Below, piece by piece: positions 1-17,804 of a stretch of DNA of 64,000 bases. Every line of letters begins with the position of its first letter. Position 1 is the first letter of the stretch. The DNA comes from Tubulanus polymorphus (lineage: Eukaryota; Animalia; Nemertea): the NCBI RefSeq assembly GCF_964204645.1, contig NC_134033.1:7448655-7512654 (forward strand). The letters are read 5' to 3'. A program made the translations under genes and the position numbers. A model generated the notes under the pieces. The model was not told where the DNA came from and did no database searches. It saw only the letters and a list, made by a program, of their open reading frames with translations.

Positions 1-225
1 AGACGAGTGAGCCATACTTACTAGATTGGTCATGTGAATCAACATCAAATTTAGAACTATCATCCATTTTTAGTTTTCAATCAAAGACCAACCTATGAAA
101 TAAAGTACATATTTTTCTGATAACAACCTGGAATAAATTAAAATAAATCTGAGGAATTCACCAAATTTCTGTATCAAACCCCTAATAGGGCCTATATAAC
201 CTATAGATTGATACTTACATACGAC

Positions 226-493
226 AGTAATAGGGATAATGGGCTTTCAGGCCAAAGGTCGAACGGTCGAGCTCGTAAAAATGAAAAAACATAAAAATAA
301 TAACAATTTCTACTTGAATTACTCGCAAAACTCATAAAAATGAAAAATAAATTCTCACACGCTCGAATTTATTTTTCATTTTCATGAGTTTCACTCCTAA
401 TTCAAGTAGAAATTGTTATTATTTTTATGTTTTTTCATTTTTACTCACCCGCCCGTTCAACCTTTAGCCTGAAAGCCCATTATCCCTATTACT
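226..493 (+). repeat. Left TIR, itself a 268-nt imperfect palindrome (fold-back hairpin)
   Basis: AGTAATAGGGATAATGGGCTTTCAGG at 226 and its reverse complement ending at 493; exact reverse complement of 17805-18072 by eye. Confidence 0.97.
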
Positions 494-575
494 CTTAAAA
501 TATTCACATATATATGAATAACATTTAAATCATTGAACTTCTAAAATCAATTTTAATAAAAAATATAGTATTAAA

Positions 576-3500
576 ATGGAAGCAAATAAATACTACTGCC
601 CAACATGTAATATCGATATAGACAAGTCTCAAAAAGCAAGACACAATAAAACTATAACACATTTAGAGAATAAATTGAAACTAGAGTATAAGGATGATAT
701 ATTAGAAACTAAATTAGAAGAATTAAAGAATGAAAAAGAAACATACAAATGTGGTACATGTAATCAATCATTCAGTGATAAAAGATATTATAAAGAACAT
801 TTAAAATCTATAAGTCATATTAGAAATAAGAATAATGATATTTTAGGTGAAGATTATTTTGATAATGACAATGATAAGAAACAGAAAACAATTAAAAGAA
901 TAAAAAATAAATTAAACAATAAAAGACCATACATGGAAGATGTAAGAAATTATATTAATTCATTAGATAATAAAAAAGATATAGAGATAACCGAAGCATT
1001 TAAAAGTGATATTGGTCCAGCAGCTATCGAGTTTAAATTTCATAAAGGTAAAACAATAGAAGAAAATAAAAAACATTTAGAAAATATGAAAGAAATAATA
1101 AAAATAATTACAGATGTTGAATATCCTAAAATAAGTATATCTTCTAAAGTAAAGTTTATAAAATCTGAAGATAAACCAATATATAATATTAATTCTCATT
1201 CACAACATATTATATCTAAACAACATATAGATGATAAATTAAATAAATGTTATAATGAAATAAAAACTAAAATAGAAGAGAAATATTTTGAAGGATCTGG
1301 TTTAATATTTGATGAAATAATATTTATGACTTTACATGTTTATAACACAAAATATAATAAGTTAACTAAATCAAAACCAATTGATGAAAATAATTTATCA
1401 TATTATAAAGAACCAGATATTGAAGCATCAAGTTATATTAAACTACCATTTAAAACTAATGCTGTAATAAATATACAAAATGAAGATGATAAATGTTTTC
1501 TATGGGCTATAATAAGTTGTTTACATCCAGTTGAAGATTATAATAAACATACTTATAGATTAACTCATTATAAACAATTTGAAAATAATTATAAGATAGA
1601 TAAGTATCCTGTTAGAATTAAAAACATCCCCAAAATAGAAAGAGATAATAATTTAAAGATAAATGTATTTGATTTAATTAAATTACCAAATACAAAAGGA
1701 AATAATATTAAACATTATACATTAGAACCTTTATACCTATCAAAAGATTATGATTCAAACGATGTTATAGATATACTATATTATGAGAATCATTATATGT
1801 GGATTAAACAAATAGATTTATTTTTCAAATCAGAAAATGATCACCATAAAATATATCTATGTAGAAAATGTTTACATAAATTTAGTAATGAAAGTACATT
1901 ATTAAATCATAAACAACTATGTGATAATCATGATTATTGTAAATTAGTTTTACCAAATGAAAAAGATAAAATATTAGAATTCAAAAAATATGATTACAAA
2001 AATAAAGTACCATTTGTAATATATGGAGATTTTGAATCATTAAATAAAGAATTAACAGATAAAGATAGAAAAGATATATATTATAAAAGAAAGAAATTAA
2101 ATTCTAATGAAAATGATTTTTCACATGAACCACCAAAAACAAATACTATTAAAAAGATTCATCAATCAGCTGCTGCTTTCGGGTTATATATAAAATCTGA
2201 TTATCCAGAACTAATTGAAAGTGAATATTATAATTATAGAAATGAAAATGTTATCAATCATTTTTGTGACTTATTAATTGAATATGAAATAAGATTTAGT
2301 AAATTATTGAATACAAATAAAGAAATAATTATGACAGAAGAAGATAAAGAAGTATTTGAGTTTAGAGATAAATGTTATTATTGTGAAAAGATATTTAATT
2401 ATAAAGATAAAAAAGTAAGAGACCATGATCATTTGAACGGAAAGTTTAGAGGCGCTGCACATGAGAATTGTAACTTACAAGCTAAGAAAATTAATTTTGT
2501 ACCAGTTATATTTCATAATCTATCAGGATATGACGCGCATTTATTCATTAAGCAACTATGTCGTAAAATAGAAGAAATTAATAATGAAATAGAAATATTA
2601 AATTCAAATAGATCAAAAGATAAAATACCAACTTATAAATTTAGAATGTTAGCTAAAACATCTGAGAATTATATATCATTCCAATTTGGTTGTTTAAGAT
2701 TTATAGATTCATATAGATTTTTAAATAGTTCATTAGATAACTTATCAAAATCATTAGTTGATGATGAATTAAAGATATTAAAAGAATATTACCCAAATTA
2801 TGATGATTTTAAATTAATGAGATATAAAGGAGCGATTCCATATTCTTTCTATAAAAATCATAATGATTTTAAAATAACTGAATTATTGAAAGAACAATTC
2901 TATGATGAATTAAAAAATGAATATGTTAAAGATGAAGTTTATAATAGAACATTGAATATTTGGAATCATTTTGAAATTTAAAATCATGGACAATTAGTAG
3001 ATTTATATTTAAAATCAGATGTATTATTATTAACCGATATATTCGAAAGGTTTAGAGATGTAAACCTAAAATATTTTAACATTGATCCATGTCATTGTTA
3101 TTCATCACCAGGATTAACATGGGATTGTGGATTAAAATTTACAGATATAAAAATGGATTTGTTAACAAATATAGATCAATTACTATTATTTGAAAAATCT
3201 ATAAGAGGAGGTGTTTCAGGTGTATTGGGTGATAGATATTTCAATGTAAATGATAATCCTGGATATAAATTATTATACATAGATGCAAATAATCTTTATG
3301 GTTGGGCAATGATGGAACCACAACCTTATGGGATGTTTGAAATAACTGAAGTTTTACAAATTGATAAATTTGATTGGAAGAAAAGAATCCTAGATATTGC
3401 AGATGATTCAGATATTGGTTACTTCTTTGTTGTAGATTTAGAATACCCCGAAAATATTAAATTCAAATCTAGAAATCTAGCATATTGTCCCGAACATAAA

Positions 3501-4607
3501 ATTGTTAAACATGAAGAATTATCAAATTATCAAAAAAGAATTAAACCCGATAATCATGTTCATACTGAAAAGTTAATGGTAACTCAAGAAGATAAATATA
3601 ATTATGTAGTACATTATAGAATGTTGAAGTTTTATTTGAATCAAGGAATGATATTAAAAAAAGTACATAGATATATTTCATTTAATCAATCTAAGTGGTT
3701 AGAAAAATATATAGATTTTAATACTACACAGAGAACTAAATCTAAAATTGATTTTGAGAAGGATTTTTTTAAGTTAATGAATAATGCGTTTTATGGTAAG
3801 ACTTGCCAAAACATAAGAAATAGAAGTGATTTTGAGTTAGTTAGTAATGGTAAAAGGATAAGGCATTTACAATCATATCCTAAGTTTATAGGTAACAGAA
3901 TATTTGATGAAAATTTAGCAGCAGTTAAAATGAGAAGAACTTCTATGAAGTTCAATAAACCTATTTATGTTGGTGCATCAGTTCTAGAAATTTCAAAATT
4001 ATTAATGTATCAATTTTACTATAATGTATTGCAACCCCATTTTGGGGAAAAACATATTGAAATATTATATTTTGATACAGATTCTTACATATTAAAGATA
4101 AAAAGTGATAATATAAAAGATGATTTAAAAATATTAAATCATCATTTTGATTTCAGCAATTATCCCAAAGATCATGAACTATTTAGCAATGATAATAAAA
4201 AAGTTCCTGGGAAGTTTAAGGATGAATTAGGTGGTGAAGAAATGATAGAGTTCATTGGTATTAGATCTAAAATGTATAGTTATAAAACTAAAGAACATGA
4301 AGCTAAAAAGTTAAAAGGAATAACCAAAAGCGTTGTTGAAAAGAATATTCATTTCAAAGATTACATCAATTGTATATTCAAAGAAGAAGTTAGAAAACAT
4401 AAGATGAAATGTTTAAGATCTGAAGATCATGAAATGTATATTGAAGAGATAGAGAAGATAAGTCTAAACCCATTTGATGATAAAAGATATATTTTAGATG
4501 ATGGAATCCACACAGTCGCCTATGGTTGCAATTTAGATGAATATATAAAATTCAAAAGAGAAGAATCAAAAGAAAATGAAATTATGAAAAGGATTCTAAC
4601 GTGTTAA
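576..4607 (+). pseudogene. polB: Protein-primed family B DNA polymerase (pPolB), about 1343 codons, with one in-frame TAA at 2979-2981
   Basis: ORFs 576-2981 and 3153-4607 are in the same frame and the gap reads NHGQLVDLYLKSDVLLL. Motifs: YGDFES (ExoI), FHNLSGYDAH (ExoII), YIDANNLYG, KLMNNAFYGK, YFDTDS; N-terminal zinc fingers; OTU-like DKCFLWA...HYMWIK; endonuclease VII-like RDHDHLNGKFRGAAHENCN. Confidence 0.95.
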
Positions 4608-4635
4608 TAAATTTCAATAAAAATTTGTATAATAA

Positions 4636-4977
4636 ATGGAGAGTAAACAAGTACACAGTGAATTCTTAGATAGAATTAAAGATACCACAAATGTAAAATC
4701 TGTAGATTATAAATTCAAAAAATTAACAGAATTAACAATTCACAAGAAATATTTAATTACAAATATTGTTACAGTTACTAACAAATATGGAGATAAATTA
4801 GTAATTCATTTAGAATATGAAGGATTAAAAGGAAATAAATATAAATTCAGAACTTATTTACCAGATAGATTTCATAGATTATCAAGTGAAGATCTAGAAG
4901 AATTATGTTCTGGAGATTTCTATTTCGTATACAAAGGTAAGAATGAAAAAGGGCACCATGAAATAGATTTCGAATGA
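4636..4977 (+). CDS. 113-aa conserved Polinton protein, candidate OB-fold ssDNA-binding protein
   Basis: Intact ORF with TAAATG start; homologues at 34907, 44980 and 50100(-) with mostly synonymous differences. The function is inferred only, from the beta-strand/aromatic pattern, the acidic tail EIDFE and linkage to polB. Confidence 0.6.
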   Translation: MESKQVHSEFLDRIKDTTNVKSVDYKFKKLTELTIHKKYLITNIVTVTNKYGDKLVIHLEYEGLKGNKYKFRTYLPDRFHRLSSEDLEELCSGDFYFVYKGKNEKGHHEIDFE

Positions 4978-4994
4978 GAAAATATGTAAAATAA

Positions 4995-5753
4995 ATGGTG
5001 GAATTAAAAGAATACAGAATATTTGTTGATTCTAGAAAACTTACAAATTATAAATCACATAATTTATTAGTACAATTAGACAGAGAATTCAAAAATTGTG
5101 TTGATTTAAAATTAGTAAATATAAGTTTATGTAATTCTTTTTACAATGTATCGGATAAGTCTATTGAACATAGAGTCTTTTTAATTCATGATAGAAATAA
5201 AAGTAAATGGTTTCATCTTTATCTTAAACCAGGATTATATAATTTAGATACATTAGCTCAAGAAATTAATAGAAGAGCTCGGTTGAAAATGGGTGCATCT
5301 GCTGGATTTGGATTAAGACTGATTAAAAGTGATAGTTCTGATAAAATAAGAATAAAATTAGGTAATGAAGATCAACATCAATTTCTAGTTAAAAAACCTT
5401 TAGCTAAAATTTTAGGAATAACCCCAGATATAAGGATACGCAATGCTGATGCTACACCAAATATAATGCCTTTTACACATTTTTATATTTATTGCAATTT
5501 AATCGATCCTACAAAAACATTCGAAGCAACTAAAGATATAACTTGTAATTCTGGTTTACTAAACATTTTACCATTGAAGAATGTTAAAGAATTTGGAACG
5601 CAAATAAATTATAATTTAACAGAATGTGATTTCAAACCATGCATTCCTCATTTTAATAATTTTAGATTAGAAATTAGAAATCATAATGGATACTTAATTG
5701 ATTTAAATAATTTCCCTGTAATTTATGAATTAGTTATAAGATGTAAAGAGTAA
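4995..5753 (+). CDS. Minor capsid protein (penton, single jelly-roll)
   Basis: Pattern IFVDSR...NSFYNV...LKPGLYN...LAKILG...FYIYCNLI...LEIRNHNGYLIDLN is typical of Polinton/PLV pentons. Confidence 0.85.
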   Translation: MVELKEYRIFVDSRKLTNYKSHNLLVQLDREFKNCVDLKLVNISLCNSFYNVSDKSIEHRVFLIHDRNKSKWFHLYLKPGLYNLDTLAQEINRRARLKMGASAGFGLRLIKSDSSDKIRIKLGNEDQHQFLVKKPLAKILGITPDIRIRNADATPNIMPFTHFYIYCNLIDPTKTFEATKDITCNSGLLNILPLKNVKEFGTQINYNLTECDFKPCIPHFNNFRLEIRNHNGYLIDLNNFPVIYELVIRCKE

Positions 5754-5769
5754 TTTTTTTGATATATAA

Positions 5770-6111
5770 ATGAATATAACTGTTGGACCGAGTATATGTT
5801 TTGGGTTTGATTTTAAACATGGTAAAGAAATGAGAATTAAACTAAATGATGTAATTACTGATATAAAAAGTAAATCATTTAACAATGCATCAATGATTGA
5901 TAAAGAAAAGTATAATATAGAAAAAGTAATTGATTTAATTAAATCACCTTTAGAATATTATGAATTAAATGAAGATGGAATTATTGATGATATTAAAAAC
6001 ATATTATCCAAAATATATGATAATCATAAAAGTAGTAATGAAATAAATGTTGAAATAATCATAAATAAGATAACTAAATATTTTGATGATAGTAATTTTT
6101 TTGATAAATAA
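5770..6111 (+). CDS. Hypothetical protein, 113 aa
   Basis: Intact ORF in the gene array, preceded by T7-N6-TAAATG. Confidence 0.7.
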   Translation: MNITVGPSICFGFDFKHGKEMRIKLNDVITDIKSKSFNNASMIDKEKYNIEKVIDLIKSPLEYYELNEDGIIDDIKNILSKIYDNHKSSNEINVEIIINKITKYFDDSNFFDK

Positions 6112-6333
6112 ATGAGTGATAATAAGTGGATAATTACTGGATTATATAATGGCGCATTACTATCAGTTGGAACTGTTGGTTATTCAATGGTATTAAAAAA
6201 AGGATTCAAAATGGGAAGTGTTAATGTTGATAGATTTGATATAAATGATATTCTAAAATTAACATTAGCAGTTACTTTATCTAATTTAACTATTGATTAT
6301 TTGGAAAAACAAAAATATATTCCTCCCATATAA
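6112..6333 (+). CDS. Small hydrophobic/membrane protein, 73 aa
   Basis: Two hydrophobic helices; preceded by T7-N6-TAAATG. Confidence 0.75.
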   Translation: MSDNKWIITGLYNGALLSVGTVGYSMVLKKGFKMGSVNVDRFDINDILKLTLAVTLSNLTIDYLEKQKYIPPI

Positions 6334-6357
6334 ATGCATAATTTTTTTGTTAAATAA

Positions 6358-6780
6358 ATGGCTTCTGCAATTATAACTATTATAGGATCGGCAATTGTTA
6401 ACGCTTTAGCATTTACTGGTGGTGGTTATTTATTTAAACATATTGATAAAAATAGTTCATTAGGAGAACAAAGAAGACATAACTTAGCGTTAGAGAAATA
6501 CAATAAAGCTGCAGAAGAATATAGAGAAAAGAGACAAAACTATATGGATTACATCAATAAAGAATTATATGATCAGAAGATTTCACATAGAGATTTTCAA
6601 TCAGTTGATGATGCAATGAGTTTATATAACGCGGTAACCAATAAAGAAAAATTACATCTATACAAACCTAAATTATCAGATTATTATACCCCAAGTAAAG
6701 AACAACAGAAATATGAAATAATATAGATTTTAGGCAGAACTGTTATTGTTATATTTGTTGCTTATAAGTTTACTAATTAG
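6358..6780 (+). pseudogene. Membrane/coiled-coil protein (about 140 aa) with premature TAG at 6724-6726
   Basis: Hydrophobic N-terminus and coiled coil; the frame continues past the stop as ILGRTVIVIFVAYKFTN to a TAG at 6780, just before the next promoter motif. Confidence 0.7.
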
Positions 6781-6799
6781 TAATTTTTATTCTAAATAA

Positions 6800-7234
6800 A
6801 TGGAAGATAAAGTTGATAGTATTGATATTATTCCTCATGATATAAATAAAACTAAATTAAAAACATATTTAGAAAAACAAATATTAGAATTTGAAAGTGA
6901 CTTAAAGATAAAAAAGAAAAAATATTTAAAAAGTAAAATTATATATTATTTGATTATAAGTGGTTCGGTTACAATTAGTTCTGTAATAACATTTCTAGCA
7001 ATATTTAGTCCATTAACACCTTTAGCTATATCAATTGGTGTATTAGGATTAAGTTCAAGTGTTTTAACTGGTATAAGTTCAAAATTAAATATAAAAAGTA
7101 ATAAAGAAAAAATCAAAACTAATATAAAAGAAATTAATAAATTAAAGAACACACTAGATTATATAATAAGTTTAAATGGTCATATAACAGTTAAAGAACA
7201 AGATAAATTATTAAAAGAATTAATAAATTATTAA
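6800..7234 (+). CDS. Two-TM helical-hairpin membrane protein, 144 aa
   Basis: Coiled coil, two adjacent hydrophobic helices, coiled coil, ending NGHITVKEQDKLLKE; resembles the putative membrane-active proteins of adintoviruses. Confidence 0.7.
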   Translation: MEDKVDSIDIIPHDINKTKLKTYLEKQILEFESDLKIKKKKYLKSKIIYYLIISGSVTISSVITFLAIFSPLTPLAISIGVLGLSSSVLTGISSKLNIKSNKEKIKTNIKEINKLKNTLDYIISLNGHITVKEQDKLLKELINY

Positions 7235-7250
7235 TTTTTTAATTATATAA

Positions 7251-8558
7251 ATGGTAGATAGTTTTCCAAAAGCTTTCCAATATAATAAATCAATTAAATA
7301 TAATATTCCGGCAATAGATTTTAAGAAAAATATTACATATAAAAATAGAGTTTTAAATTCATTAACTAATTTAGAAATTTATGTTAATGAATCACAGTTT
7401 TTTATTTCTAAAATGGAAAATATATTTAATACATATGAAGTTACTTTTACTCGAGATGAATATCATATATATAAAGTAAAATCTAATATGAAGTATTGGC
7501 AGAATCAATTAAATTTTGCTGTTTATTGTGCAACAACAGGATGTGGAATTAGTTGGAATGATCATTTAAATAACTTAGATAAAAATTTGAAGTATTCTGA
7601 TTTAAAATTAATTCACACAATATTTAGATTTCACACATATTTTCAAATCAGAATAATATTAAATGAATTAGAATGTCCTTTACCCGGGTCTAAATATTTT
7701 AAAGAATTGGATAATAATATTAATATATCCAAGTTTTATAAAATATGTAATGAATTTAATATAAATATTAATTCCGATTTTAGAGCGCATGGTAAATTGC
7801 AAGGTGTTGGTGAAGAGTTTGAAATAAAAAGAATTGATTATATGCATAGAATTTCAGCTTATCATAATTATAAAATTGATAATAATAATGGTTGGGTTAA
7901 TTTCATTTTAGAAAATGGTGAAGGTTTTACAAAATCTGGTATACAAAGAATAAATCAATCTATTAGAATTTATTTGATATGTATTCTAGGCGCCCAAGTT
8001 GAAACAAGATCCCCAATAATTGGAAATGATAACACTTCATTCGATGCGCAGAAACAGTTTAAAGTTTTATTTGAAGATTCCATACATGATGATAAAAATA
8101 GATCGATTCCAGAAAACATTATAAGATATCAAAATTATTTAGATAAATCTCATGTAAGACTTAATCATTGTATAGGCCCTAATCTATTAATTATTTCTAA
8201 TGATTTAGTATTAAAGATGGGAAATATAATTGGTTATAATAATCTAATTAAAACTGCAACAATAAATAATTCATTTGGATTGAATGATATAAATAAAAAG
8301 ATTATTACTGCTCCAAAATTAATGGAAGGTGAAAAAAATAAAAAACACATTCAATCAACAGAAACTAAAACTAAGAATATTAAATTGGTTAATGATTCTA
8401 AAATAAAAGATTACAATACATCAGAAAATATAAAAACTGATAAAATTCAACATGATATAATTAAACTAAATGATGATAATAAATCCCATGAAAATACTAA
8501 ATTAGCTATAACTTGTATAGGAATTGTAATCGGAGGAATATTATATTTTAAATTTTAA
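7251..8558 (+). CDS. Hypothetical 435-aa protein with C-terminal TM anchor
   Basis: Intact ORF; motif WQNQLNFAVYCATTGCG; C-terminal LAITCIGIVIGGILYFKF. Confidence 0.8.
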   Translation: MVDSFPKAFQYNKSIKYNIPAIDFKKNITYKNRVLNSLTNLEIYVNESQFFISKMENIFNTYEVTFTRDEYHIYKVKSNMKYWQNQLNFAVYCATTGCGISWNDHLNNLDKNLKYSDLKLIHTIFRFHTYFQIRIILNELECPLPGSKYFKELDNNINISKFYKICNEFNININSDFRAHGKLQGVGEEFEIKRIDYMHRISAYHNYKIDNNNGWVNFILENGEGFTKSGIQRINQSIRIYLICILGAQVETRSPIIGNDNTSFDAQKQFKVLFEDSIHDDKNRSIPENIIRYQNYLDKSHVRLNHCIGPNLLIISNDLVLKMGNIIGYNNLIKTATINNSFGLNDINKKIITAPKLMEGEKNKKHIQSTETKTKNIKLVNDSKIKDYNTSENIKTDKIQHDIIKLNDDNKSHENTKLAITCIGIVIGGILYFKF

Positions 8559-8574
8559 TTTTTTTATTATGTAA

Positions 8575-10033
8575 ATGGCAGAAGGTGTAGAAGATTATGA
8601 AATGGGAGAAATGGGAAATAATAATGAAGGATATATTGATGATGATTATAATGATGCAGAAACTAATATTGATAATAATGATGAATCAGCATATAATTCT
8701 AATTTAGCAGATAGTGGTTCTAAAGGTCAATCAACAGATGAATTTGATAGAAGAACTAGATCGAGAATAAATCCTGAAAATGAAAATCCAGATTTAGTAA
8801 AACAAAATTTAGAATATAATGAATTTATGTATGATTTTCAACATGTATTTAAAGATTCTGGATATAATATAAATGCCAGAGGCGCTAGACTTTTAGTACA
8901 AGAATTAAAATTTTTAGATGGTGAATATTATTATCGTTTGAAAGATGATTATTATATTGATATCTCTTATAAAAAACAAAACAAAATATTAGCAGAATCA
9001 ACTTTGCTTAAGTCTGACTCATTACTATCTAGAATTAAAAGAATAAGAAATAATAATGAAATAGAAGATGTAACACAAGAAGAAATTATTAAAAATGAAA
9101 GAGTATTTAAACAAAGAATTAATGAATTATTTGAAACAATCGATAATAATTTAGAAACAGAAACAACTTCTGAACAGAATATAACTTCCAAAACTAGTAA
9201 ACTTAAATCAAACACTGAAGTTCAAACTGAAAAACTTTTACCGAATGGATTACTTGATGCAACAGATCAAGAAATAGAAGCTTTAAGTATGTTTTCTAAA
9301 AAAACAATTAGAGAAATAATAAGTATACGAGATGAAGCTGATAAAATTGCTCGCGAAAAACATATTAGATATAATAAAATTAAACCTTTAGAAAATAAAT
9401 TATTTGACACCAGAAAAGAATTAGAACAATTAAAATTAGATAGAGAATTTAAAGTTATTGAAGAAATTGAATTTAAAAAAAGAAATGCATATTTAGAAAA
9501 AGAAATTGATGATTTAGAATATAACATAGAATTTCAGAAAGAAAAAATGAAATTATTATTAAAATCATACGATTATTGTATTAATAGATTAAAAGTTGTT
9601 GTTAAAGAGTTAATACTAAAACCAAATTCTGACATATCACTAAAAGACAGAATAAAATTATTATTTAAGTTTGAAGGAATAACGGTTCTTTCAATTCTAA
9701 CAGCTGTAACTATGTTATTTACAACAATTGGTTTAGCAATATCAAATGCTTTAAAATCTACTCCTACTCCAAATAAACCAGATAAACCTCCAGGTAATAA
9801 TTCTATACAAGATAAAGTTAAGGATGGTTTAAAGAAATTAGCAAAATATTTATGGGAACTATCAAAGAAATCTGCTGTAGCACTACCAGGAGTTATTGCT
9901 TCAATTGTTGGATTTTATATTGAAATCTGCAGGTAATATTCTTAACTTTGCTGCTGAACATATTATTTTATTTTTAATCACAGTTGTAAGTGCTATTATT
10001 TTTGGTTTAGTAAACATGATAAAAAATAAATAA
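8575..10033 (+). pseudogene. Acidic/coiled-coil membrane protein (about 485 aa) with a 1-nt frameshift near 9915
   Basis: Removing one T in GGATTTTATATTG extends the ORF with ILKSAGNILNFAAEHIILFLITVVSAIIFGLVNMIKNK to TAA at 10033, filling the gap before the MCP. Confidence 0.75.
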
Positions 10034-10054
10034 TTAATTTTTTTTGTTAAATAA

Positions 10055-11302
10055 ATGAGTGGGAGTTATATAAGTCCTTCTAAGATTTCTAGAATATCTA
10101 ATGCTATTAAAGCAGAAAGATCACATCATATAATTACTCATAACCCTTCAAATATTAATCCCGATGAAACTTTATATGTTAGAATTCCTAGATTAACACA
10201 AAATACTTTTTATGTTCCAAACAGTATTTATTTATCAGCTGATATAAAAGTAATCGGTAATAATAATAATTATGTTGTTGATAATGTTGGAAGATATTTG
10301 ATTAAAAAGTTAACAATAAAGATTGGTCCAGAAACAGTTTTCTCATTAGATGATTATAATTTATTTATGCATTATAAAGATTTATGGTTAACTAAAGAAA
10401 ATAGAAATAATATGATATTTCAAGGCATCCAATCAGAAAACCAAAATAAATTAAGATCAGAAGCTAATAGCGCAATATTAACAAATGATGTAGATAAATT
10501 GATAAAAAGTATATATGGAAACAAATATAAAATTCCATTAGACTTTGAATTGATAAATAATAATGCACCTTTATATAAATACGCAATTCAAGAAGATATT
10601 ATATTTGAGATAACATTTGCTCCTGTAAATGAAATTGTATTATCTAGCGTTAATAAAGATATGAGTTATAAATTATCGAATATATGTTTAGAATATGATA
10701 CAGTAACTGATGAAAATATTGCTAGAACAATTCAAACTCAATACAATCAAGGATTTTCATTATTATATGATTATATTGATAAATTTAAAACTGTAACTAT
10801 TAATGCAAATGATGAAATAATAAATGAGAATATTAACTTCCCTAGAAGATCTATTAAAGGTATATTAATATTTTTTACTATTGGAACGTATACTAATGGC
10901 GCAATAAATGTTGATAATTATTATAATCCTGAAATAACAAAAGTAGAAATAACTATCGAAGGTATAGCGAATAAAATATTTTGTCAAGGAATGAGAATGA
11001 TAGATCAATGGGTAGAAATTAAAAAACATTTTATGAATGAAAAAGTAAAATCATTTGAAAATTGTAACATTAATCAAATTGATTATTATACCGGTAATAA
11101 ATATGCATTATGGTTAGATTTTAGAACAACAGAGGATAATTCATTACATGGTTCTGGAAAAAAACTACAAAACACTAAAGATGGAATACAATTATTCATG
11201 ACAAAGAAAAAGGGAATCAAAAATTTTAAAATGCACATTTATATTATATCTGACGCGCAATTAAATATTGTAAATTCACAATTAGATAGTGTTATGTATT
11301 AA
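10055..11302 (+). CDS. Major capsid protein (double jelly-roll)
   Basis: 415 aa, beta-rich; HNPSNINPDETLYVRIPRL...NVGRYLIKKL...LEYDTV...ALWLDFR; size and position fit a Polinton MCP; diverged copy at 35800-36290. Confidence 0.85.
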   Translation: MSGSYISPSKISRISNAIKAERSHHIITHNPSNINPDETLYVRIPRLTQNTFYVPNSIYLSADIKVIGNNNNYVVDNVGRYLIKKLTIKIGPETVFSLDDYNLFMHYKDLWLTKENRNNMIFQGIQSENQNKLRSEANSAILTNDVDKLIKSIYGNKYKIPLDFELINNNAPLYKYAIQEDIIFEITFAPVNEIVLSSVNKDMSYKLSNICLEYDTVTDENIARTIQTQYNQGFSLLYDYIDKFKTVTINANDEIINENINFPRRSIKGILIFFTIGTYTNGAINVDNYYNPEITKVEITIEGIANKIFCQGMRMIDQWVEIKKHFMNEKVKSFENCNINQIDYYTGNKYALWLDFRTTEDNSLHGSGKKLQNTKDGIQLFMTKKKGIKNFKMHIYIISDAQLNIVNSQLDSVMY

Positions 11303-11334
11303 AATTTTAACTTTAATAAAAATATATATAATAA

Positions 11335-12324
11335 ATGGAAGGAGGTAAAGTATATAAACATATTCCATACATCGATACACATGAAAATAATGATGGTTTA
11401 TATTATGTAATACCTTGTAATATAGCTTTGATATTCGATCCTATTTTTAAAAATTATAAAACTAAACTGATAGAAATCAATAATAATAAAAGTGGTGTTG
11501 TTAATAATAGTGTAATTGATAATAATGTAATACCTACTACACCTGTAATACCTACTACATCTGTAATACCTACTACTACATCTGTAATACCTTCTACATC
11601 TAATAACGTAATACCTTCTACATCTAATAACGTAATACCTACTACATCTGTAATACCTACTACATCTAATAACGTAATACCTTCTACATCTAATAATGCA
11701 ATAATATTAAATGTTAGTGAAAATAGAAATTATTGTGGTTATTGTAATGGTGAATTTTCAAACGCTCCATCAAATTGGAATAAACATATGAATACAAATT
11801 CACATATTACTAATGTTATAGAACGTGTTGGTTTAAGAGAATTTATAGAACACCCATTTAGATATGTTACAAAGTTTGTTTCAAATAAAAAAGTAAATGG
11901 TGAAAAAATATATGAAGATTTATTATTAGCAACACCTAATAAAGATGAATTAGATTTAACCGATGCTAATGAAATATTAGGATCAAACACTGTAAATGAA
12001 ATATTAGGAGCAAACACTAATAAAGATGATAATGAAAATGGTGCCATACACCCACATGATGATATAGTTACAGTTAAACATATTGATAATAAAGATTCTA
12101 TAAAACTTAAAGTAGAAAATAATGATAAATTTTATTGGATGAATAAGTTTAAAAATGAAACAACTATTGATGGTTTGGTAAAAAATGTTAAAAAGGTGAA
12201 AAAGGTGAAAAAGGTGAAAAAAAATTATAAAGATGTTGATGTAGATTCGGTAGAGCATTTAAATATGTTGTTAGCGCCTGATAGTGAAAGTGATTCAGAA
12301 AATGATTATCTAAAACTCGAATAA
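11335..12324 (+). CDS. 329-aa protein with VIP(T/S)TS(NN) repeats, one C2H2-like finger and KKV repeats
   Basis: About nine VIPxT repeats (11527-11700), CGYC...KHMNTNSH, acidic tail. Confidence 0.75.
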   Translation: MEGGKVYKHIPYIDTHENNDGLYYVIPCNIALIFDPIFKNYKTKLIEINNNKSGVVNNSVIDNNVIPTTPVIPTTSVIPTTTSVIPSTSNNVIPSTSNNVIPTTSVIPTTSNNVIPSTSNNAIILNVSENRNYCGYCNGEFSNAPSNWNKHMNTNSHITNVIERVGLREFIEHPFRYVTKFVSNKKVNGEKIYEDLLLATPNKDELDLTDANEILGSNTVNEILGANTNKDDNENGAIHPHDDIVTVKHIDNKDSIKLKVENNDKFYWMNKFKNETTIDGLVKNVKKVKKVKKVKKNYKDVDVDSVEHLNMLLAPDSESDSENDYLKLE

Positions 12325-12382
12325 TAAAGGTTGAAAATTGTATAAAATAATAGTAAATAAAAAAAGGGTTTTAATCATTTAA

Positions 12383-12498
12383 GGTATCTAATAGGGTATC
12401 AGGTATTAGGGTATCAGGTATTGGGGTATTAGGGTATCAGGTATTAGGGTATCAGGTATTAGGGGTATCAGGTATTAGGGTATCTAATACATAGGTAT
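12383..12498. repeat. G-rich 15-bp tandem repeat (TAGGGTATCAGGTAT) between the convergent gene blocks
   Basis: About six copies read directly. Confidence 0.9.
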
Positions 12499-12506
12499 AC
12501 AAATAG

Positions 12507-13118
12507 TTATTTTATAAATTTATATTCATATGGAAATTGTAATCTCATAAGTAATTTGGAACCTTTATTATTTTTTAATTTATTCATATATTCATCATGT
12601 AATTCAGGAGGTATAATTTGATTTTCTTCCAATGATTGTTGCATAGATTTTCTATCTTTGTTGTAGAATAAAACTAGAAATCTTATATTCTCCCTAAAGT
12701 CTTTAACAATTGAATTATATTTTTGATTTAAAACCCATGTTGTTATCCCAAAATGTCTACCAGAGAAAGCTAAATAACATAACTCACTTTCTCTAATTTT
12801 AGAATCATGTAAATTTGCGCAATCATCAATAATAAATAATGTATTTGATCCTTTATAAATATCTAATACAATTTTTATACAATTATCTAAATTTTCTTTT
12901 ACTGTTTTAGGGTCTAATATAATGAACTTTTTTATCTTAACTATATCTCTATTATATGTTTTATTCATTTCATATGTAGGACAGAATAATATTATATTAT
13001 CAAAATGATTTTTATAAATAGTTTCTAACAAGTCTAATATGAAATGTGTTTTACCACAATTTGTAACTCCAGTAACTAACATATTATGTGGTTCAAATAT
13101 AAATAAATCTTTATTCAT
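12507..13118 (-). CDS. A32/FtsK-like genome packaging ATPase
   Basis: Walker A GVTNCGKT, Walker B LFIIDD, GRH motif, LNQ, IR. Confidence 0.95.
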   Translation of the reverse strand: MNKDLFIFEPHNMLVTGVTNCGKTHFILDLLETIYKNHFDNIILFCPTYEMNKTYNRDIVKIKKFIILDPKTVKENLDNCIKIVLDIYKGSNTLFIIDDCANLHDSKIRESELCYLAFSGRHFGITTWVLNQKYNSIVKDFRENIRFLVLFYNKDRKSMQQSLEENQIIPPELHDEYMNKLKNNKGSKLLMRLQFPYEYKFIK

Positions 13119-14193
13119 TTATTCTTTTAATTTTACTAGATAAAATCCATTCATTAAATTTATCATCATATCCTTTATATTTCACCAAAGAATACTTTTT
13201 TCCTTTAAGAGTTTTTGTTTTCAATACTTTTTCTATTTTGTATTCTATTTCATCTGGATTTGGTACTAATGATAATTCTTGTTCATAAAAATAACCTAAT
13301 ATTTCTTCATCTTTTAAATCTTCTAATTTATAAACAAATGGTTTAGTTAATATTATCTTTTTAATTTTAAATATTTCTTCAGTAAAATTAGGGGTATAAC
13401 CTTTATAAAATGTTTTTCGATATTTAGAAATTCTAACGTGTTGTCCTATTTTAAATTTAGGTTCACCGAAATCATGTGTAACAAATGCTCCATATAAATT
13501 ATTCCAAACTATTTCCGAATTATCTTCTTTTCTAGCTTGTATGGGTTTCATATTTATAGAACTATGTTTAGAATTATTATAACCTTTCACTAAATCATCT
13601 AACACATCGATATATTTATATGTTTCATTAGCGGTGAAATATTTCCACGTTTTCAATGTTTTATTAAATCTTTCTATAACAGATGCTTTTTTATCTGAAT
13701 GTGTTGAAAAATATTCTACATCGTTATCAGTTAATAGTTTTTTAAAATGTTTGTTATAAAATTCTTTACCTTCATCAAATTGTATTTTATCTGGGATAGC
13801 TTCTTTAAATATAGATTTAAAAGCATTTGTAACTTCTATTCCAGTTTTATTTTTAATCGGGATACTCCATGCGTATCTACTGAATATATCTATAACATTC
13901 AGTATCCAGAAATATCCTTTGTTATATTCTTCTAAGTTTTTCATGTCAATTAAATCAGCTTGCCATTGTTGGTCAATATATGAAACCATAACTTTTCTTG
14001 TTAAATATTTTTTATCCATCTTTTTATGAATTTGATATGTGGGTTGATTTTGTAACCATGATTTTAATTCACTATATTTTATATCACTATTATCGGATTT
14101 AATTTTATTCCATAATTCTGAAACACTTGAATATGATACTTCACTTTCTGGGTTATAATATAACTCTCTTAAATATTGTTCTTTTTTCATCAT
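13111..14193 (-). CDS. Retroviral-like (rve) integrase with C-terminal chromodomain
   Basis: WQADLIDM, QFDEGKEF, VIERFNKTLK (DDE triad); YKIEKVLK...LVKYKGYDDKFNEWI chromodomain. Confidence 0.96.
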   Translation of the reverse strand: MMKKEQYLRELYYNPESEVSYSSVSELWNKIKSDNSDIKYSELKSWLQNQPTYQIHKKMDKKYLTRKVMVSYIDQQWQADLIDMKNLEEYNKGYFWILNVIDIFSRYAWSIPIKNKTGIEVTNAFKSIFKEAIPDKIQFDEGKEFYNKHFKKLLTDNDVEYFSTHSDKKASVIERFNKTLKTWKYFTANETYKYIDVLDDLVKGYNNSKHSSINMKPIQARKEDNSEIVWNNLYGAFVTHDFGEPKFKIGQHVRISKYRKTFYKGYTPNFTEEIFKIKKIILTKPFVYKLEDLKDEEILGYFYEQELSLVPNPDEIEYKIEKVLKTKTLKGKKYSLVKYKGYDDKFNEWILSSKIKRINE

Positions 14194-14196
14194 ATT

Positions 14197-14562
14197 TTAA
14201 TCCATTAATAATATTTCATATTTATTTTCATTTGATTTATTTTCTGGTATGATAGGTTTACTGTCTGTACACGGATAACTAAGTTTCCGATCATCTTTAT
14301 CATCAGATTTGAATTTTGATTTATATATTACACCGGATAATATAATAACTGTGATTAACCCAATTGTAATATATAAGTAATTATTTCTTCCACTATTAGA
14401 AGAATTAGATGGATTATTATTTGAATCAATACCATCAGATTCATTTATATCAGTTAATTTCTTTTTCTTAGCTTTTTTTAATTCTGAAGATCTTTTACCT
14501 AATTCTCTTGCCCATTTAATTTGTTTCTCGGATCTAGCCTTTTTCTTAACTCCATCACTCAT
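14197..14562 (-). CDS. Basic single-TM protein, 121 aa
   Basis: Lys-rich N-terminus, TM YLYITIGLITVIILSGVIY; TAAATG start. Confidence 0.75.
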   Translation of the reverse strand: MSDGVKKKARSEKQIKWARELGKRSSELKKAKKKKLTDINESDGIDSNNNPSNSSNSGRNNYLYITIGLITVIILSGVIYKSKFKSDDKDDRKLSYPCTDSKPIIPENKSNENKYEILLMD

Positions 14563-15157
14563 TTATTTTAGTTAATTTTTGTTCTGATTCATCTTCTGTT
14601 TCGACGTTTGGTTGTAGTACATCTGTTTCGTTCTTACCTGATTTATATTCCATAGGTTTGATGTTCGAAAATGTTATAACTCCAGTAGAAATCAATGTCA
14701 TAACCGATCCTAATTGAAATGAAGCATATCCAACCCATTTTTGTAATTCAGTCATAACTAAATAGTCATTTTTCAAATCATTATATAATTTATTTTCATC
14801 ATCAATTGGTATTAGCCGGTTACATAACTTAGAATAACATTTGATAATACCATCACTTATAGAGTCGTTTATTCTAGCTGATCTTGACTCTTCATAAATC
14901 TTAAAATATTTAATTACTTTAACGGGTTTCATAGAGTCTAGTTCTTGAAAAGTTATTATTTTTCCTAAGAAGTCCTTAGATTTCCCGCCAGCAATTAATA
15001 ATTCAAGATGATGCTTACAATATAAATAGTATTCATAATCTATATTGTTATTAACTTGAGCACAATTAGTTGCAACTGTATCTTTATTATCACTTATACC
15101 CAAATCATCTAATGTCTTTTCAATATCAATACTATTCTTATTAGATTTCTTTGACAT
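14555..15157 (-). CDS. Hypothetical protein, 200 aa
   Basis: Intact ORF preceded by TTTTTTTCTCTAATATAAATG. Confidence 0.8.
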   Translation of the reverse strand: MSKKSNKNSIDIEKTLDDLGISDNKDTVATNCAQVNNNIDYEYYLYCKHHLELLIAGGKSKDFLGKIITFQELDSMKPVKVIKYFKIYEESRSARINDSISDGIIKCYSKLCNRLIPIDDENKLYNDLKNDYLVMTELQKWVGYASFQLGSVMTLISTGVITFSNIKPMEYKSGKNETDVLQPNVETEDESEQKLTKINE

Positions 15158-15405
15158 TTATATTAGAGAAAAAAAGCAAAAAAAATATTATAAGTATTCT
15201 TCAAATGATACTAGCTAGTTAAAGCTAAAGAATTCTAGTATTGACTACTGATACTAGCTATTTGAATTTAAAGAATTTCTATTTGAATCTATTCAAAATA
15301 TAAAGTATTCTCATTTGAAAAGAAAATATTAAAAATATAATAGAATTCACTAGCTAGTTGAAGTTATTGTTTTTTTATTATATTTTATTTGAGATATATT
15401 ATTCT

Positions 15406-16074
15406 TTAACCACTCATTAAAGACTCAACGTATTGTTCATTATTTGGATTATTATTCCATTGATCAATAAATTTCTTTGCTTTTGTTAACTGTTCTAAAT
15501 ATAATTGTAAATCTAGTTTATTAGATTTGATTTGATTTTCTTTCTTTTCTAAAGGCCTTAGATTCTTCCAATTCCAAATAAGTTTTTTATTATATTCATC
15601 ATTCATGTTAAATTTAGATATTGGTAACACGTGATCAATGTGGTAATAATCCCCATAATTATCTATATTCATTTTATCATCGAATTGAAATATTATCCAT
15701 GATTTGAGAAATTCATCTGAACAACCCAACAAATTAGATAGTGTTTCTGAATGTGTTTCTTTGTTGAATAATTGTGTTATTCTAGTCCTTAAGCATTGTT
15801 TCAATCTAAAATTAAGATCTGTTTGATATCTTTCTCTCATATATTTTGTCATATAATAATTATAATGTTTTATATTATCTTCTCGATATTGTTTGGTGTA
15901 TAGTTTAGCACAAGTTTTACAACAATTTTGAAAACCATCTTTGCTAATCTTACGCTTACTAAATTCTGTTAAAGCTAATTTATCTAATTCACATTTAGAA
16001 CACTTCTTGTAGTATATGTTTATAACGCCAGTGTTATTTGTAATATTGATAGTTTGTGGTTGTTCTGGTTCCAT
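15406..16074 (-). CDS. Zinc-ribbon + HNH-type endonuclease (type common in large DNA viruses)
   Basis: CSKC...CKTC; LGCS...QF...M..DNYG..HIDHVLP...WNWKNLRPL...N..K.NK. Confidence 0.85.
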   Translation of the reverse strand: MEPEQPQTINITNNTGVINIYYKKCSKCELDKLALTEFSKRKISKDGFQNCCKTCAKLYTKQYREDNIKHYNYYMTKYMRERYQTDLNFRLKQCLRTRITQLFNKETHSETLSNLLGCSDEFLKSWIIFQFDDKMNIDNYGDYYHIDHVLPISKFNMNDEYNKKLIWNWKNLRPLEKKENQIKSNKLDLQLYLEQLTKAKKFIDQWNNNPNNEQYVESLMSG

Positions 16075-16215
16075 TTATTATACGTATTTTTTTACTAAAT
16101 TGGTTAATAATTTTAGAATCCTCTTCCATTTCTCCGACTAACGTCATCCTTTTTCATTCCTCGCTGTTTTTGATAAGTCAGTTTCGATTCCTTGATATCT
16201 AAATAATACCACTGG

Positions 16216-16735
16216 GCAAAAGCGCGCATTCATGCGCGCTTTTGCTTAATGCGCATGCGCTAATCATAATTATATATTCATTCTGTAAATTCTGTAAAAT
16301 AGAAACGACTGACATAAAATATCTAAACGTGTTCGCACTAAGCAAAACCGCTCTTATAGGAGCGTTTTTGATCAATGCGCATGCGCTAATCATAATTATA
16401 TATTCATTCTGTGAAATAGAAACAACTGAACATAGAAAATTCAAACGCATATGTACTAGGCAAAACCGCTCTTATAGGAGCGCTTTTGCTTAATGCGCAT
16501 GCGCTAATTATAATTATATTTACATAATGAATATATAATTATGTAAATAGAAACGACCGAACATAAAATATCAAAACGTGTTCGCATTAGGCAAAACCGC
16601 TCTTATAGGAGCGCTTTTGCTTAATGCGCATGCGCTAATTATAATTATATATTCATTCTGAATAGAAACGACCGAACATAAAAATTCATCAATCAGATTT
16701 ACACAATACATTATACAAGTTGTTCGGTCGTTTCT
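16216..16735. repeat. Four tandem ~118-131-bp units, each with a 30-bp palindrome and TGCGCATGCGC
   Basis: Palindromes start at 16216, 16342, 16460 and 16591; AGAAACGACCGAACA recurs inverted at about 16721. Confidence 0.92.
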
Positions 16736-17723
16736 TCCAATACATCATTTGATTTCTATAAATACAATTTATAATTACAAACATTTTTTCAATTGCTGGT
16801 AAATATTTAACTACATCAACAAAAGTTAAACTTAATCATTGGAGTCTTAATGTTTTTGAAATTCTTATATAGTTTCTTCGACGATCTTTTGGGCGATTCT
16901 TGTGTTTCTTGTGCTAATTTCTATTGGTTTGATATCCATTGCTGTTGATTCCTCAGTCAGAAAGAGTATCTTGAGTTTCTCTATCGCTTCTTGATGTGTA
17001 TGACGTTTTATTAACCTAAAAGATATTAGCGGTAACTCTAGCAATCTAAAAGATATTCTAAATACGCTTAAATATATCTAAAGGTTTCATATTTAATAGC
17101 TCTAATAACTACAACAAACAGTACTTACATTTAGATTTATAATTGTAAACTATAAACTCCTAATTTCGTTTCAAAAGATAGAATATCCTGAGCACAATAT
17201 TACAGCGTATATCCATTTCCGGGGCGATTTCTAGAATGACACGTCGTTGATTATGCCACGCCATCTAGTTCCGGTTCTAGAATATTCTACACGTTTCTAA
17301 TTATGACGTGTAATAATGTCTCGTCGTTATAGTAACAACTGTAACAGCTGTGAATTTATAGATTTATTCTATGGCTCTGTACATTGAATGTATATAGGCT
17401 CAAATAGAATCATGTTCTAGTATAAACATCTAGAACAAGCATGTTGAGACTTGTAAATTATGAGATTTGTGATTCGCTACGTTCGCTGTATACACAACGT
17501 GTTGAAGTTGAAAAAAACAATAATAAAAGCATTTAGATTAATGAAATTAATTAACTCTTTACAATTGAAATATAAGCTGGTAACATATGTTTACTAGAGC
17601 TAATACAACCAACTATATAGCTGAGTATTATCGGGTGTTTATAACGATTCAACATATTTTTCACCATGTGTTGAGTTCCTTAATTCGATAAATGTCTTTG
17701 CTTTAACCAACTGGACTAAAAAC

Positions 17724-17801: not shown

Positions 17802-17804
17802 GGG

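Follow-up and report, generated by a model that had tools for sequence, protein, structure and literature searches.

Organization of the element

Within the window (the whole stretch of DNA analysed, 64,000 nucleotides of a Tubulanus polymorphus contig), positions 226–18072 are occupied by a Polinton-like element that has both borders present, an AT content of ∼77 per cent, and genes for a protein-primed type B DNA polymerase (pPolB), an integrase, an A32 ATPase, and a capsid protein. Its features are given below, with all promoters as candidates; A-core denotes the pattern TTTTAATAAAAA-N9-11-TAAA(A)TG, and L001 is a relative of the element.

220–225, +: left target-site duplication TACGAC, the identical hexamer lying just outside both termini
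226–502: terminal inverted repeat of the left end, 277 nt, matching the right arm at 99%
576–4607, +: type B DNA polymerase, protein-primed, that carries an HNH/endonuclease VII insertion (PF02945)
4636–4977, +: 113-aa soluble protein, no Pfam match; A-core promoter, TAAATG
4995–5753, +: 252-aa likely minor capsid (penton) protein; weak DUF5901, E 0.03
5754–5772, +: late-type promoter T7-GATATA-TAAATG of ORF 5770–6111 (113 aa)
6096–6114, +: late-type promoter T7-GATAAA-TAAATG, lying within the final codons of ORF 5770 and kept in L001
6112–6333, +: 73-aa ORF, weakly hydrophobic, served by the promoter at 6096–6114
6342–6726, +: late-type promoter T7-GTTAAA-TAAATG and ORF 6358–6726, 122 aa, N-terminal hydrophobic segment
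6787–7234, +: late-type promoter (T5, 8-nt spacer) and ORF 6800–7234, 144 aa, two hydrophobic segments, weak SLATT match
7235–8558, +: late-type promoter (T6, 7-nt spacer) and ORF 7251–8558, 435 aa, C-terminal hydrophobic anchor
8559–9936, +: late-type promoter T7-ATTATG-TAAATG and ORF 8575–9936, 453 aa, C-terminal hydrophobic segments
10038–11302, +: late-type promoter T8-GTTAAA-TAAATG and putative major capsid protein 10055–11302, 415 aa
11335–12324, +: 329-aa protein, likely C2H2 finger and repeats; A-core promoter TTTAATAAAAA-N9-TAAATG
12507–13118, −: A32-type packaging ATPase (PF04665 E 3.6e-11); TAAATG without T-run
13111–14193, −: rve integrase with chromodomain (PF00665, PF00385); start TAAAATATG
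14197–14562, −: 121-aa membrane protein; TAAATG, T stretch merely short
14555–15185, −: 200-aa protein, start 15157; late-type promoter T8-GC-T7-CTCTAATA-TAAATG
15406–16074, −: HNH/endonuclease VII-like protein (PHROG 1035 E 4e-15); A-core promoter TTTAGTAAAAAAA-N8-TAAATG
16100–17795: CpG-rich and non-coding, with four TGCGCATGCGC in a tandem repeat of 131 bp
17796–18072: right terminal inverted repeat, palindromic, then the duplication TACGAC at 18073–18078

The 277-bp terminal inverted repeats, the rve integrase, the A32-like ATPase, and the protein-primed PolB (full length in relatives, split here) are those of a Maverick/Polinton, as is the 6-bp target duplication that is the rule in this group. 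The first 268 nt of the left repeat form an imperfect palindrome with a single long hairpin fold (−106 kcal/mol, z −26). At position 226, 1716 reads leave the element into differing flanks (agreement 0.34), which indicates many host insertion sites, and broken and deleted copies are also found within the window. The non-coding region terminates in a short inverted piece of polB 5′ coding sequence adjoining the right repeat, and an Rfam search of it returned zero matches.

In this copy polB is broken into ORFs 576–2981 and 3153–4607; it stands at 83 per cent to 1363-aa relatives (81–83 per cent identity over full-length relatives), and further homologues carry PF03175. We infer from sequence comparisons that ORF 10055–11302 encodes a double jelly-roll (DJR) major capsid protein: PF16903 is matched weakly, below cut-off, in 15 of 31 aligned homologues, and Atlas look-alikes of the homologue P0069 carry DJR families on 10–24 per cent of members, while a comparison with PDB sequences gave no match. 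The size and position of ORF 4995–5753 make it the likely minor capsid (penton) protein, and we take it to resemble penton proteins. The element has at least five membrane proteins; for the product of ORF 7251–8558 the structure model is confident (pLDDT 86), and a clear structural match was not found.

A preliminary description of this DNA had put the intergenic gaps in the structural block at 0–25 bp, which holds for five of seven (16, 0, 24, 73, 16, 16, and 118 nt); the two long gaps come after ORFs shorter than their L001 orthologues (122 vs 139 aa, and 453 vs 485 aa for ORF 8575–9936, which terminates before the end of its orthologue). Introns, said there to be absent, are not evident here either, and ORF 7251 and its L001 orthologue align over their whole length. 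As to its statement that no RNA polymerase is encoded, a search of the ORFs by Pfam and by BLAST against two 22-kb poxvirus core regions detected neither an RNA polymerase nor a transcription factor of poxvirus type, and the BLAST search found no poxvirus genes in the element or its relatives.

Gene starts

TAAATG lies over the start of 14 of 16 genes (the polB 3′ fragment at 3153 excluded), the exceptions being polB (TAAAATG, 576) and the integrase (TAAAATATG, 14193 on the minus strand), whose start is the least canonical in the element; this recount agrees with the earlier one. TAA precedes only 44 of the element's 722 non-start ATGs (∼6 per cent; Fisher p 7.5e-15), and the first ATG of shuffled ORFs falls in TAAATG in 152 of 2631 cases. 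The eight ORFs previously said to have a T-run about 6 nt upstream were exactly those recovered (5770, 6112, 6358, 6800, 7251, 8575, 10055, and 15157 on the minus strand), with runs of 5–8 T and spacers of 6–8 nt, 6 nt in five of the eight. At 6112 the motif does sit within the last codons of the upstream gene, the run lying 16 nt before the stop of ORF 5770–6111. Such runs, at 6–8 nt, precede 8 of the 14 TAAATG starts and 0 of the 44 non-starts (p 1.6e-6), and T5-N4-8-TAAATG is enriched beyond dinucleotide shuffles (8 observed; mean 0.98 and maximum 5 in 60 shuffles). These counts support reading the TAAATG motif as a promoter.

It is most improbable that TAAATG arises as a by-product of AT richness, of stops overlapping starts, of Kozak context, or of an AATAAA polyadenylation signal that overlaps it. 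The high AT content, the 10 of 14 TAAATG starts that read AATAAATG, and the one start that comes immediately after an upstream stop would all suit such an origin; against it stand the ∼6 per cent background, the four starts without AATAAA, the AT-rich control elements that lack the motif, and the base at −3, which is T here and A in a canonical Maverick. The Kozak reading was rejected on this last ground. As for polyadenylation, which the preliminary description had named as the explanation that might undo its own, it is largely refuted by divergent gene pairs, where an upstream gene to terminate is absent; pairs ∼19–24 nt apart with TAAATG on both sides occur in the relatives L002, L005, and L006. 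Nor is AATAAA depleted inside the 14.6 kb coding strand (67 vs 70.6 expected), the corresponding figure for the window's retrotransposon and other host-side ORFs being 0 vs 3.0 expected, a small control.

Two promoter classes

A second class of start, absent from the preliminary description, has the A-core pattern and comprises polB (intermediate-like, with TAAAATG at 576), HNH, penton, and ORFs 4636 and 11335. In poxvirus late promoters the 10th base upstream of TAAAT is a conserved T, and intermediate promoters are without T at −10 and have an AT-rich core further upstream (PMC11980589). With orthologues pooled, T at −10 of TAAA is present in 16 of 17 capsid and membrane genes and 5 of 13 enzyme genes, a difference for which p-values are overstated because the gene groups were assigned after the motifs had been seen and orthologues are not independent; it is present in 16 of 18 poxvirus late orthologues, 2 of 10 intermediate ones, and 11 of 43 non-start TAAATGs. 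The A-core pattern, which was drawn after viewing the sequences and set beside a small poxvirus sample, is found at 10 of 22 soluble genes and, among poxvirus genes, at 4 of 10 intermediate and 0 of 18 late ones; 0 of 43 non-starts have it. The split is imperfect, penton having an A-core and the ATPase and integrase fitting neither class well.

Judged by these motifs, the late-type starts of the element match vaccinia late promoters, and its A-core starts resemble vaccinia intermediate ones. In both systems TAAAT(G) lies over the start codon (PMC11980589, PMC5294985), and the vaccinia late combination of a T-rich tract, a 5–7 bp spacer, and T at −10 (PMC11980589, PMC5294985) recurs in the element with a spacer of 6–8 nt. 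An A-rich core class without T at −10 appears to be common to vaccinia and the element. Tight divergent pairs are also shared, and the poxvirus pairs A10/A11 and A17/A18 of L130 show a similar arrangement. TAAATG usage in the element (14 of 16 ORFs) is more stereotyped than in the poxvirus cores L130 (7/20) and L131 (8/19), which is expected if the element is without early genes.

The same start geometry makes it very unlikely that a promoter-binding factor of the element's own, encoded among ORFs 4636, 5770, 11335, and 15157, steers host Pol II. Pol II starts 25–30 nt from a TATA core, and the TATA-like core here, 13–24 nt before the ATG, would place the start at or past the ATG. Divergent pairs ∼20 nt apart leave no space, the T at −3 suits a Kozak context poorly, and the genes do not avoid AATAAA internally. 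In favor of such a factor, no function is assigned to any of the four ORFs, ORF 11335 has a likely C2H2 finger, and TBP genes are mentioned for Polintons (PMC8502044), but Pfam gave no TBP or TFIIB match among the ORFs.

Relatives and specificity

Among ORFs of at least 100 aa, TAAATG starts number 14/15 in L001, 7/8 in L002, 5/7 in L004, 3/4 in L003, and 3/4 in L006, and most promoter classes are kept orthologue by orthologue. The capsid T-run is kept in L001–L004, the promoter at 15157 (minus strand), 248 nt from the upstream gene's stop, in L001, L002, and L004, and the A-core of ORF 11335 in L002, L003, and L004. ORF 4995 starts in TAAATG with an A-core that is degenerate here and full in L001, and ORF 4636 has an A-core here and a T-run in its L001 orthologue. 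Distant relatives L008 and L009 (35 per cent capsid identity) have TAAA(A)ATG, A standing at −3, a pattern also compatible with ordinary Kozak context, and the L007 capsid start is TGAATG. Of 136 motif-selected IMG/VR loci with at least four ORFs, TAAATG starts reach half or more of the ORFs in L024 alone, which Pfam identifies as a poxvirus; four of five other pPolB-related elements have just 0–1 such starts. The comparison with other Maverick clades that had been suggested at the outset points the same way, the canonical Maverick L133 having TAAATG at 0 of 14 starts and A at −3 in 13 of 14.

Such conservation bears on whether the wiring is a relic, that is, whether a descendant of a pox-type satellite has retained its promoters and is now a nuclear transposon whose integrase and polymerase are driven by a control region for host Pol II in the CpG-rich repeats at 16.1–17.8 kb. 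That region, with its four TGCGCATGCGC (presumably NRF-1-type sites), may serve host Pol II as a control region, and it lies upstream of the leftward block with HNH, integrase, and ATPase; the least canonical start is that of the integrase, copy number is high with many flanks, and the window holds broken and deleted copies. However, motifs are near-perfect in relatives at 52–78 per cent capsid identity, which indicates ongoing selection, and internal AATAAA occurs 4 times in the integrase gene and 18 times in polB with no overall depletion. We regard a relic as unlikely.

A probable helper-dependent satellite

We favor, with a probability of roughly 0.6, the reading that this is an integrated, many-copy Polinton-like satellite of a co-infecting giant virus of pox type, whose RNA polymerase likely transcribes it in the cytoplasm. 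The pox-like helper wiring proposed in the preliminary description is upheld as to promoter grammar, which fits in enrichment, conservation, spacing, divergent pairs, and poxvirus likeness, and is loosened as to the helper, which may be of another Pokkesviricetes type. A helper of that kind or another giant virus (asfarvirus- or egovirus-like) in place of a poxvirus, with the T-run perhaps doubling as a polyT terminator, seems improbable. In African swine fever virus (ASFV) there is a late initiator TATA and terminators of 6–7 T (PMC7458399), egovirus-like genes occur in marine sediments (10.1101/2024.03.23.586382), and the T-run starts directly after the upstream stop in three of eight cases. 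Yet the initiator of the element is TAAAT(G) rather than TATA, and the T-runs keep 6–8 nt from TAAAT yet range from −16 to +230 nt from the upstream stop: the run precedes that stop at 6112, L001 10981 (minus strand) has no same-strand upstream gene, and T-runs are missing downstream of the capsid, ATPase, and ORF 11335 stops.

On the pox-type reading, a free copy of the element would reach the helper's factory in an infected cell. Because poxvirus early transcription occurs within the virus's own core, the intermediate stage would be the earliest open to naked DNA, and the A-core genes (polB, HNH, penton, ORFs 4636 and 11335) would be read by the helper's intermediate machinery, the T-run genes (capsid and membrane proteins) by its late machinery. 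Poxvirus late mRNAs initiate within AAA and carry a non-templated 5′ poly(A) leader; initiation in AAA would similarly leave the element's mRNAs with 5′ A leaders that are non-templated, and this would account for a T at −3 that is otherwise poor. Genome and integrase would be brought to new cells by particles, which likely have an inner membrane; there the element would integrate and remain silent until infection recurs, as happens with mavirus/EMALEs in protists. It counts against this scheme that many germline insertions need repeated germ-cell access, perhaps rare for a strictly helper-dependent element. Host RNA-seq shows expression of coral polintovirus hallmark genes, possibly from another lineage than the present element, and a helper was not reported there (PMC11131425); a limited literature search found no report of poxviruses of marine invertebrates.

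More tentatively, and with rather less than even odds, a widespread marine-animal PLV lineage could consist of endogenous virophages of poxvirus-type viruses, with a two-stage intermediate-to-late programme on the helper polymerase, poxvirus-telomere-like 268-nt hairpin palindromes, hundreds of germline copies acting as an inducible antiviral reservoir, and promoters that are the footprint of undiscovered marine-invertebrate poxviruses. It has long been an open question whether animal Polintons live as autonomous nuclear viruses, as transposons, or as helper-dependent parasites, and the literature searched yielded no endogenous virophage of an animal for which dependence on a helper is defined. 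A poxvirus promoter grammar in two classes makes the lifestyle question directly testable and, if true, predicts pox-type viruses in invertebrate groups for which no report was found; TAAATG starts with T at −10 would also be a simple genomic marker for sorting Polinton lineages by lifestyle.

Comparison with known systems

The entomopoxvirus-associated PLVs AHEV_PLV1/2, CBEV_PLV1, and Ca_PLV1, found in occlusion bodies (Barth et al. 2024, PMC11296320), are small dsDNA Polinton-like proposed hyperparasites of poxviruses that share the A32 ATPase and inverted repeats with this element, and one of them is integrated in a beetle genome, as this element is in its host (PMC11296320). They are known by physical association with occlusion bodies, and in the accessible text of that source no promoter analysis was found ('TAAAT' 0 times, 'promot' solely in a reference title). 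An adenain protease and a mu-like protein occur in all four, and an rve integrase in none of them (PMC11296320), a gene set unlike that of our element, which has rve, at least five membrane proteins, many genomic insertions, and no detected protease (PF00770 is absent from its 17 ORFs by Pfam).

The capsid of mavirus and EMALEs is virophage-type. Mavirus/EMALEs of Cafeteria are, like this one, integrated rve and pPolB elements, and EMALE reactivation depends on helper-type late promoters (10.1101/2025.10.09.676808); they differ in having a protist host, a mimivirid helper (CroV), and another motif, against an animal host and a two-class pox-type grammar here.

Mavericks/Polintons (Polintoviricetes; adintoviruses, PMC8502044) have pPolB, rve integrase, A32 ATPase, capsid, inverted ends, and a 6-bp duplication, all present in the element, and an HNH-type insertion in pPolB is shared with some pPolB2 (10.1101/2023.08.22.554363). 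The combination of Mavpol-type capsid PF21738 and adenain that marks Group 1/2 Mavericks (adintoviruses) is present in the control L133 and was not detected in the element, PF21738 matching L133 and 0 of 31 capsid homologues; L133 lacks TAAATG starts. The element may belong to an animal PLV lineage outside the main Maverick groups (10.64898/2026.06.19.733378) or to the Polinton-3_NV/N1A_NV clade.

Gene content of the element

The promoter finding is carried by an AT-rich Polinton-like element at window 226–18072, whose inverted ends of 277 bp are 99 per cent alike and are met directly on the outside, at both ends, by the hexamer TACGAC. Profile searches detected no adenain, RNA polymerase or TBP among its ORFs. 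Its features are:

pPolB carrying an endonuclease VII insertion (gene split in this copy)
rve-chromodomain integrase
A32 ATPase
HNH protein
capsid protein, a putative double jelly-roll
putative penton protein
five or more proteins bearing hydrophobic segments
16236–16688, tandem repeat of 131 bp with four TGCGCATGCGC, in a CpG-rich non-coding region

A start-site motif and its two upstream classes

TAAATG spans 14 of the 16 gene starts and only 44 of the 722 other ATGs (p ~1e-14), and a run of at least five T ending 6–8 nt upstream precedes 8 of those 14 starts and none of the 44 non-start TAAATG. The preliminary description, which had reported this combination as a poxvirus late-type promoter, thus holds as written for the motif; its range of 0–25 bp for the intergenic gaps does not, since two gaps exceed 25 bp. 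Eleven sense-strand runs of six or more T lie between 560 and 16120, and eight of them belong to these promoters.

Seven metagenome loci with capsid identities of 52–78 per cent were searched for TAAATG starts, which are kept at 14/15 ORFs in L001, 7/8 in L002, 5/7 in L004, 3/4 in both L003 and L006, and 2/2 in L005; the capsid gene of L007 starts in TGAATG, and two distant loci (35 per cent identity) have ambiguous TAAA(A)ATG starts. Neither IMG/VR, searched by capsid, ORF 7251 and ATPase, nor the phage collection yielded close relatives. Sorting by orthologue separates two upstream types: (A)ATTTTTTT-N5-8-TAAATG, a late-like T-run class, marks the capsid and membrane genes, while polB, the HNH gene, penton, ORF 4636 and ORF 11335 carry TTTTAATAAAAA-N9-11-TAAA(A)TG, an intermediate-like A-core class. 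The exceptions are ORF 4636, which falls in the other class in L001, and ORF 5770, whose run is weak there; ATPase and integrase starts fit either class poorly. L001 also holds a deoxynucleoside kinase gene (PF01712; L001:10340–10981) behind a T7-CTTAAA-TAAATG promoter.

ORF 7251 (window 7251–8558) encodes a conserved, anchored protein of 435 aa with 179 homologues. An internal T6-ATTTC-TAAAATG lies in frame at its Met55 (window 7398–7415), and the equivalent methionine in L001 has T4-AATG-TAAAAATG; from these sequences a shorter isoform is possible. The predicted model reaches a pLDDT of 86.4 from the alignment vs 29.5 from the single sequence. Foldseek paired it with nothing in PDB or BFVD, and the other structural matches were to helices only (Z ≤5.2); in these comparisons no likeness to poxvirus entry-fusion proteins was found. 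ORF 7251 gave no usable hit in Atlas.

Comparison with poxvirus promoters

According to the available text of PMC11980589, vaccinia late promoters combine TAAAT(G) across the start codon with a T that is conserved at the tenth base upstream; intermediate promoters have TAAA without that T and an AT-rich core further up; a T-rich core 5–7 bp ahead of TAAAT is described in part of PMC5294985. For comparison, vaccinia classes were transferred to the genes of two 22-kb poxvirus core stretches, six of which were confirmed by Pfam and the others putatively named by gene order. With TAAATAAATG starts anchored on the corrected TAAA, T stands at −10 (counted upstream of TAAA) in 16/18 poxvirus late and 2/10 intermediate genes, and in 22/23 rows of the element capsid/membrane group, 8/22 other element genes and 11/43 non-start TAAATG; these tests are descriptive, because the groups were formed after the motifs had been seen and the rows include orthologues. 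A strict hydropathy rule gave 16/17 for capsid/membrane genes vs 5/13 for enzyme genes, having dropped ORFs 6112 and 15157 (6/23 rows), which fall below the cut-off and had earlier been grouped with the membrane genes.

TAAATG is less uniform in the poxvirus cores (7/20 and 8/19 ORFs) than in the element. The poxvirus early terminator T5NT showed no significant deviation (6 vs 9.8 expected), family ORFs showed no similarity to poxvirus core proteins, and a literature search for the core word of the promoter returned nothing relevant.

Alternative explanations of the motif

TAAATG might be read as part of a polyadenylation signal. Four starts lack AATAAA, as the preliminary description had pointed out; moreover, TAAATG stands on each strand of the divergent gene pairs of L002, L005 and L006, ~19–24 nt apart, where there is no upstream gene to end. 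The same divergent layout occurs in poxvirus pairs of L130, one of the core stretches. A reading of the T-run as a transcription terminator, as in ASFV (the accessible part of PMC7458399), is opposed by its position: it lies 6–8 nt from the downstream start and −16 to +230 nt from the upstream stop, and is missing after several stops. A Kozak context is contradicted by the T at element base −3; the canonical Maverick L133 has A there in 13/14 ORFs. As to the comparison with other Maverick clades proposed at the outset, L133 has no TAAATG start.

That AT richness alone produces TAAATG is opposed by 78 + 58 IMG/VR loci with at least four ORFs, selected by the two motifs: pooled TAAATG rates were 56/586 and 33/477, and the single locus in which at least half of the ORFs start with TAAATG was a poxvirus. 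Other pPolB-related elements have 1/18, 0/14, 0/8, 7/8 and 1/23 TAAATG starts. The Polinton-like IMG/VR contig L135 (38 per cent GC), whose integrase is 45 per cent identical and has a long N-terminal extension, has TAAATG at 7/8 ORFs without T-runs. The signal is real, strong and lineage-specific.

Transcription of the element genes in the nucleus is countered by AATAAA counts of 67 vs 70.6 expected in element coding strands, against 0 vs 3.0 expected in the host-side window ORFs, a small control. CpG was dropped as evidence: synonymous shuffles gave no junction depletion (104 vs 105.6), yet overall o/e is 0.52.

The CpG-rich repeat region, with its four TGCGCATGCGC, may serve as a control region for host Pol II, which would agree with a dual or relic lifestyle of the element. 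We take TGCGCATGCGC to be an NRF-1-like site; it occurs nowhere else in the 64-kb window, and no Rfam match was found. A second motif scan (67 loci) gave no candidate helper, and a literature search found no report of poxviruses of marine invertebrates. A further point against a helper-dependent reading is that coral polintoviruses, which may differ in lineage, are expressed in ordinary RNA-seq (PMC11131425, available text).

Copies and ends

In raw DNA reads from a sequencing run labelled as the same species, window 1–12150 is covered ~130–1300-fold in 1.93 Gb read; mapped reads are mostly 90–99 per cent alike to the element, and 1716 run off position 226 into unlike flanks. This mixed likeness and these flanks indicate a diverse element family inserted at many sites, with 155–620 copies if the genome is assumed to measure 0.5–2 Gb. 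In run X9, which may be RNA, one contig matched, over 19 bases only; runs X5 and X6, whose shares are small, were left out. Related features are:

226–493 and 17805–18072, terminal repeats, each an AT-rich imperfect palindrome of 268 nt (single-hairpin fold, z −26)
34850–36300, 44920–45120 and 45400–50250, three deleted or rearranged family copies
~34760–34860, 35280–35400 and 50130–50250, shorter end palindromes in deleted copies
51584–57100 (−), unbroken 1838-aa ORF between long direct repeats (51114, 57122), presumably BEL/Pao-type by its motifs
24281–28700 (+), decayed element, which we take from its motifs to be gypsy-type

In the deleted copies the promoter adjoining the terminal repeat is fused to ORF 4636-like or HNH-like genes, not polB; in reads of run X7, too, position 573 is fused to 4634, and 553 to 11318. 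The deleted copies are likely non-autonomous derivatives that arose at shared promoter sequences. The end palindromes, in which reads show internal skips, look like poxvirus telomere junctions; inspected by eye for the poxvirus resolution sequence, in its general form, they showed none. AAAAATGAAAAA occurs three times per element end and is similar to AAAANTGAAAA, the early consensus of vaccinia (PMC5294985, in part).

A proposed helper-dependent mechanism

There is reason to think, with a probability of about 0.6, that the best explanation of the sequence match is a satellite using the post-replicative transcription of a pox-type helper; each step beyond that match we infer. Poxvirus early transcription takes place inside the core of the helper, and a free satellite genome would therefore be left with the intermediate and late machinery alone, which fits the greater uniformity of the motif compared with poxviruses. 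The intermediate machinery would read the A-core class, where replication genes are found, and the late machinery the T-run class, where capsid and membrane genes are found. Slippage on AAA would put an A leader in place of the T at −3, an unfavourable base there. More speculatively, the end palindromes may tie replication to the helper. Integration by rve would keep silent germline copies, resembling EMALEs as the available part of that literature presents them.

Relation to known systems

The literature search found no publication on promoters of poxvirus type in Polintons; most subscription journals and bioRxiv supplements, which may bear on the point, lay outside its reach, and it included term checks of the accessible portions of PMC11296320, PMC8502044, PMC11131425, 10.1101/2023.08.22.554363, 10.64898/2026.06.19.733378 and 10.64898/2026.10.13.758929. 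Entomopoxvirus-associated PLVs differ from the element in gene set, and the portions seen of the paper and its supplement (PMC11296320) contain no promoter analysis. The element shares core features with Polintons and fails the capsid-profile and protease tests of group 1/2 Mavericks; going by the available text of 10.64898/2026.06.19.733378, it may belong to a lineage of animal PLVs that lies outside the main groups. In its way of working it would resemble a virophage.
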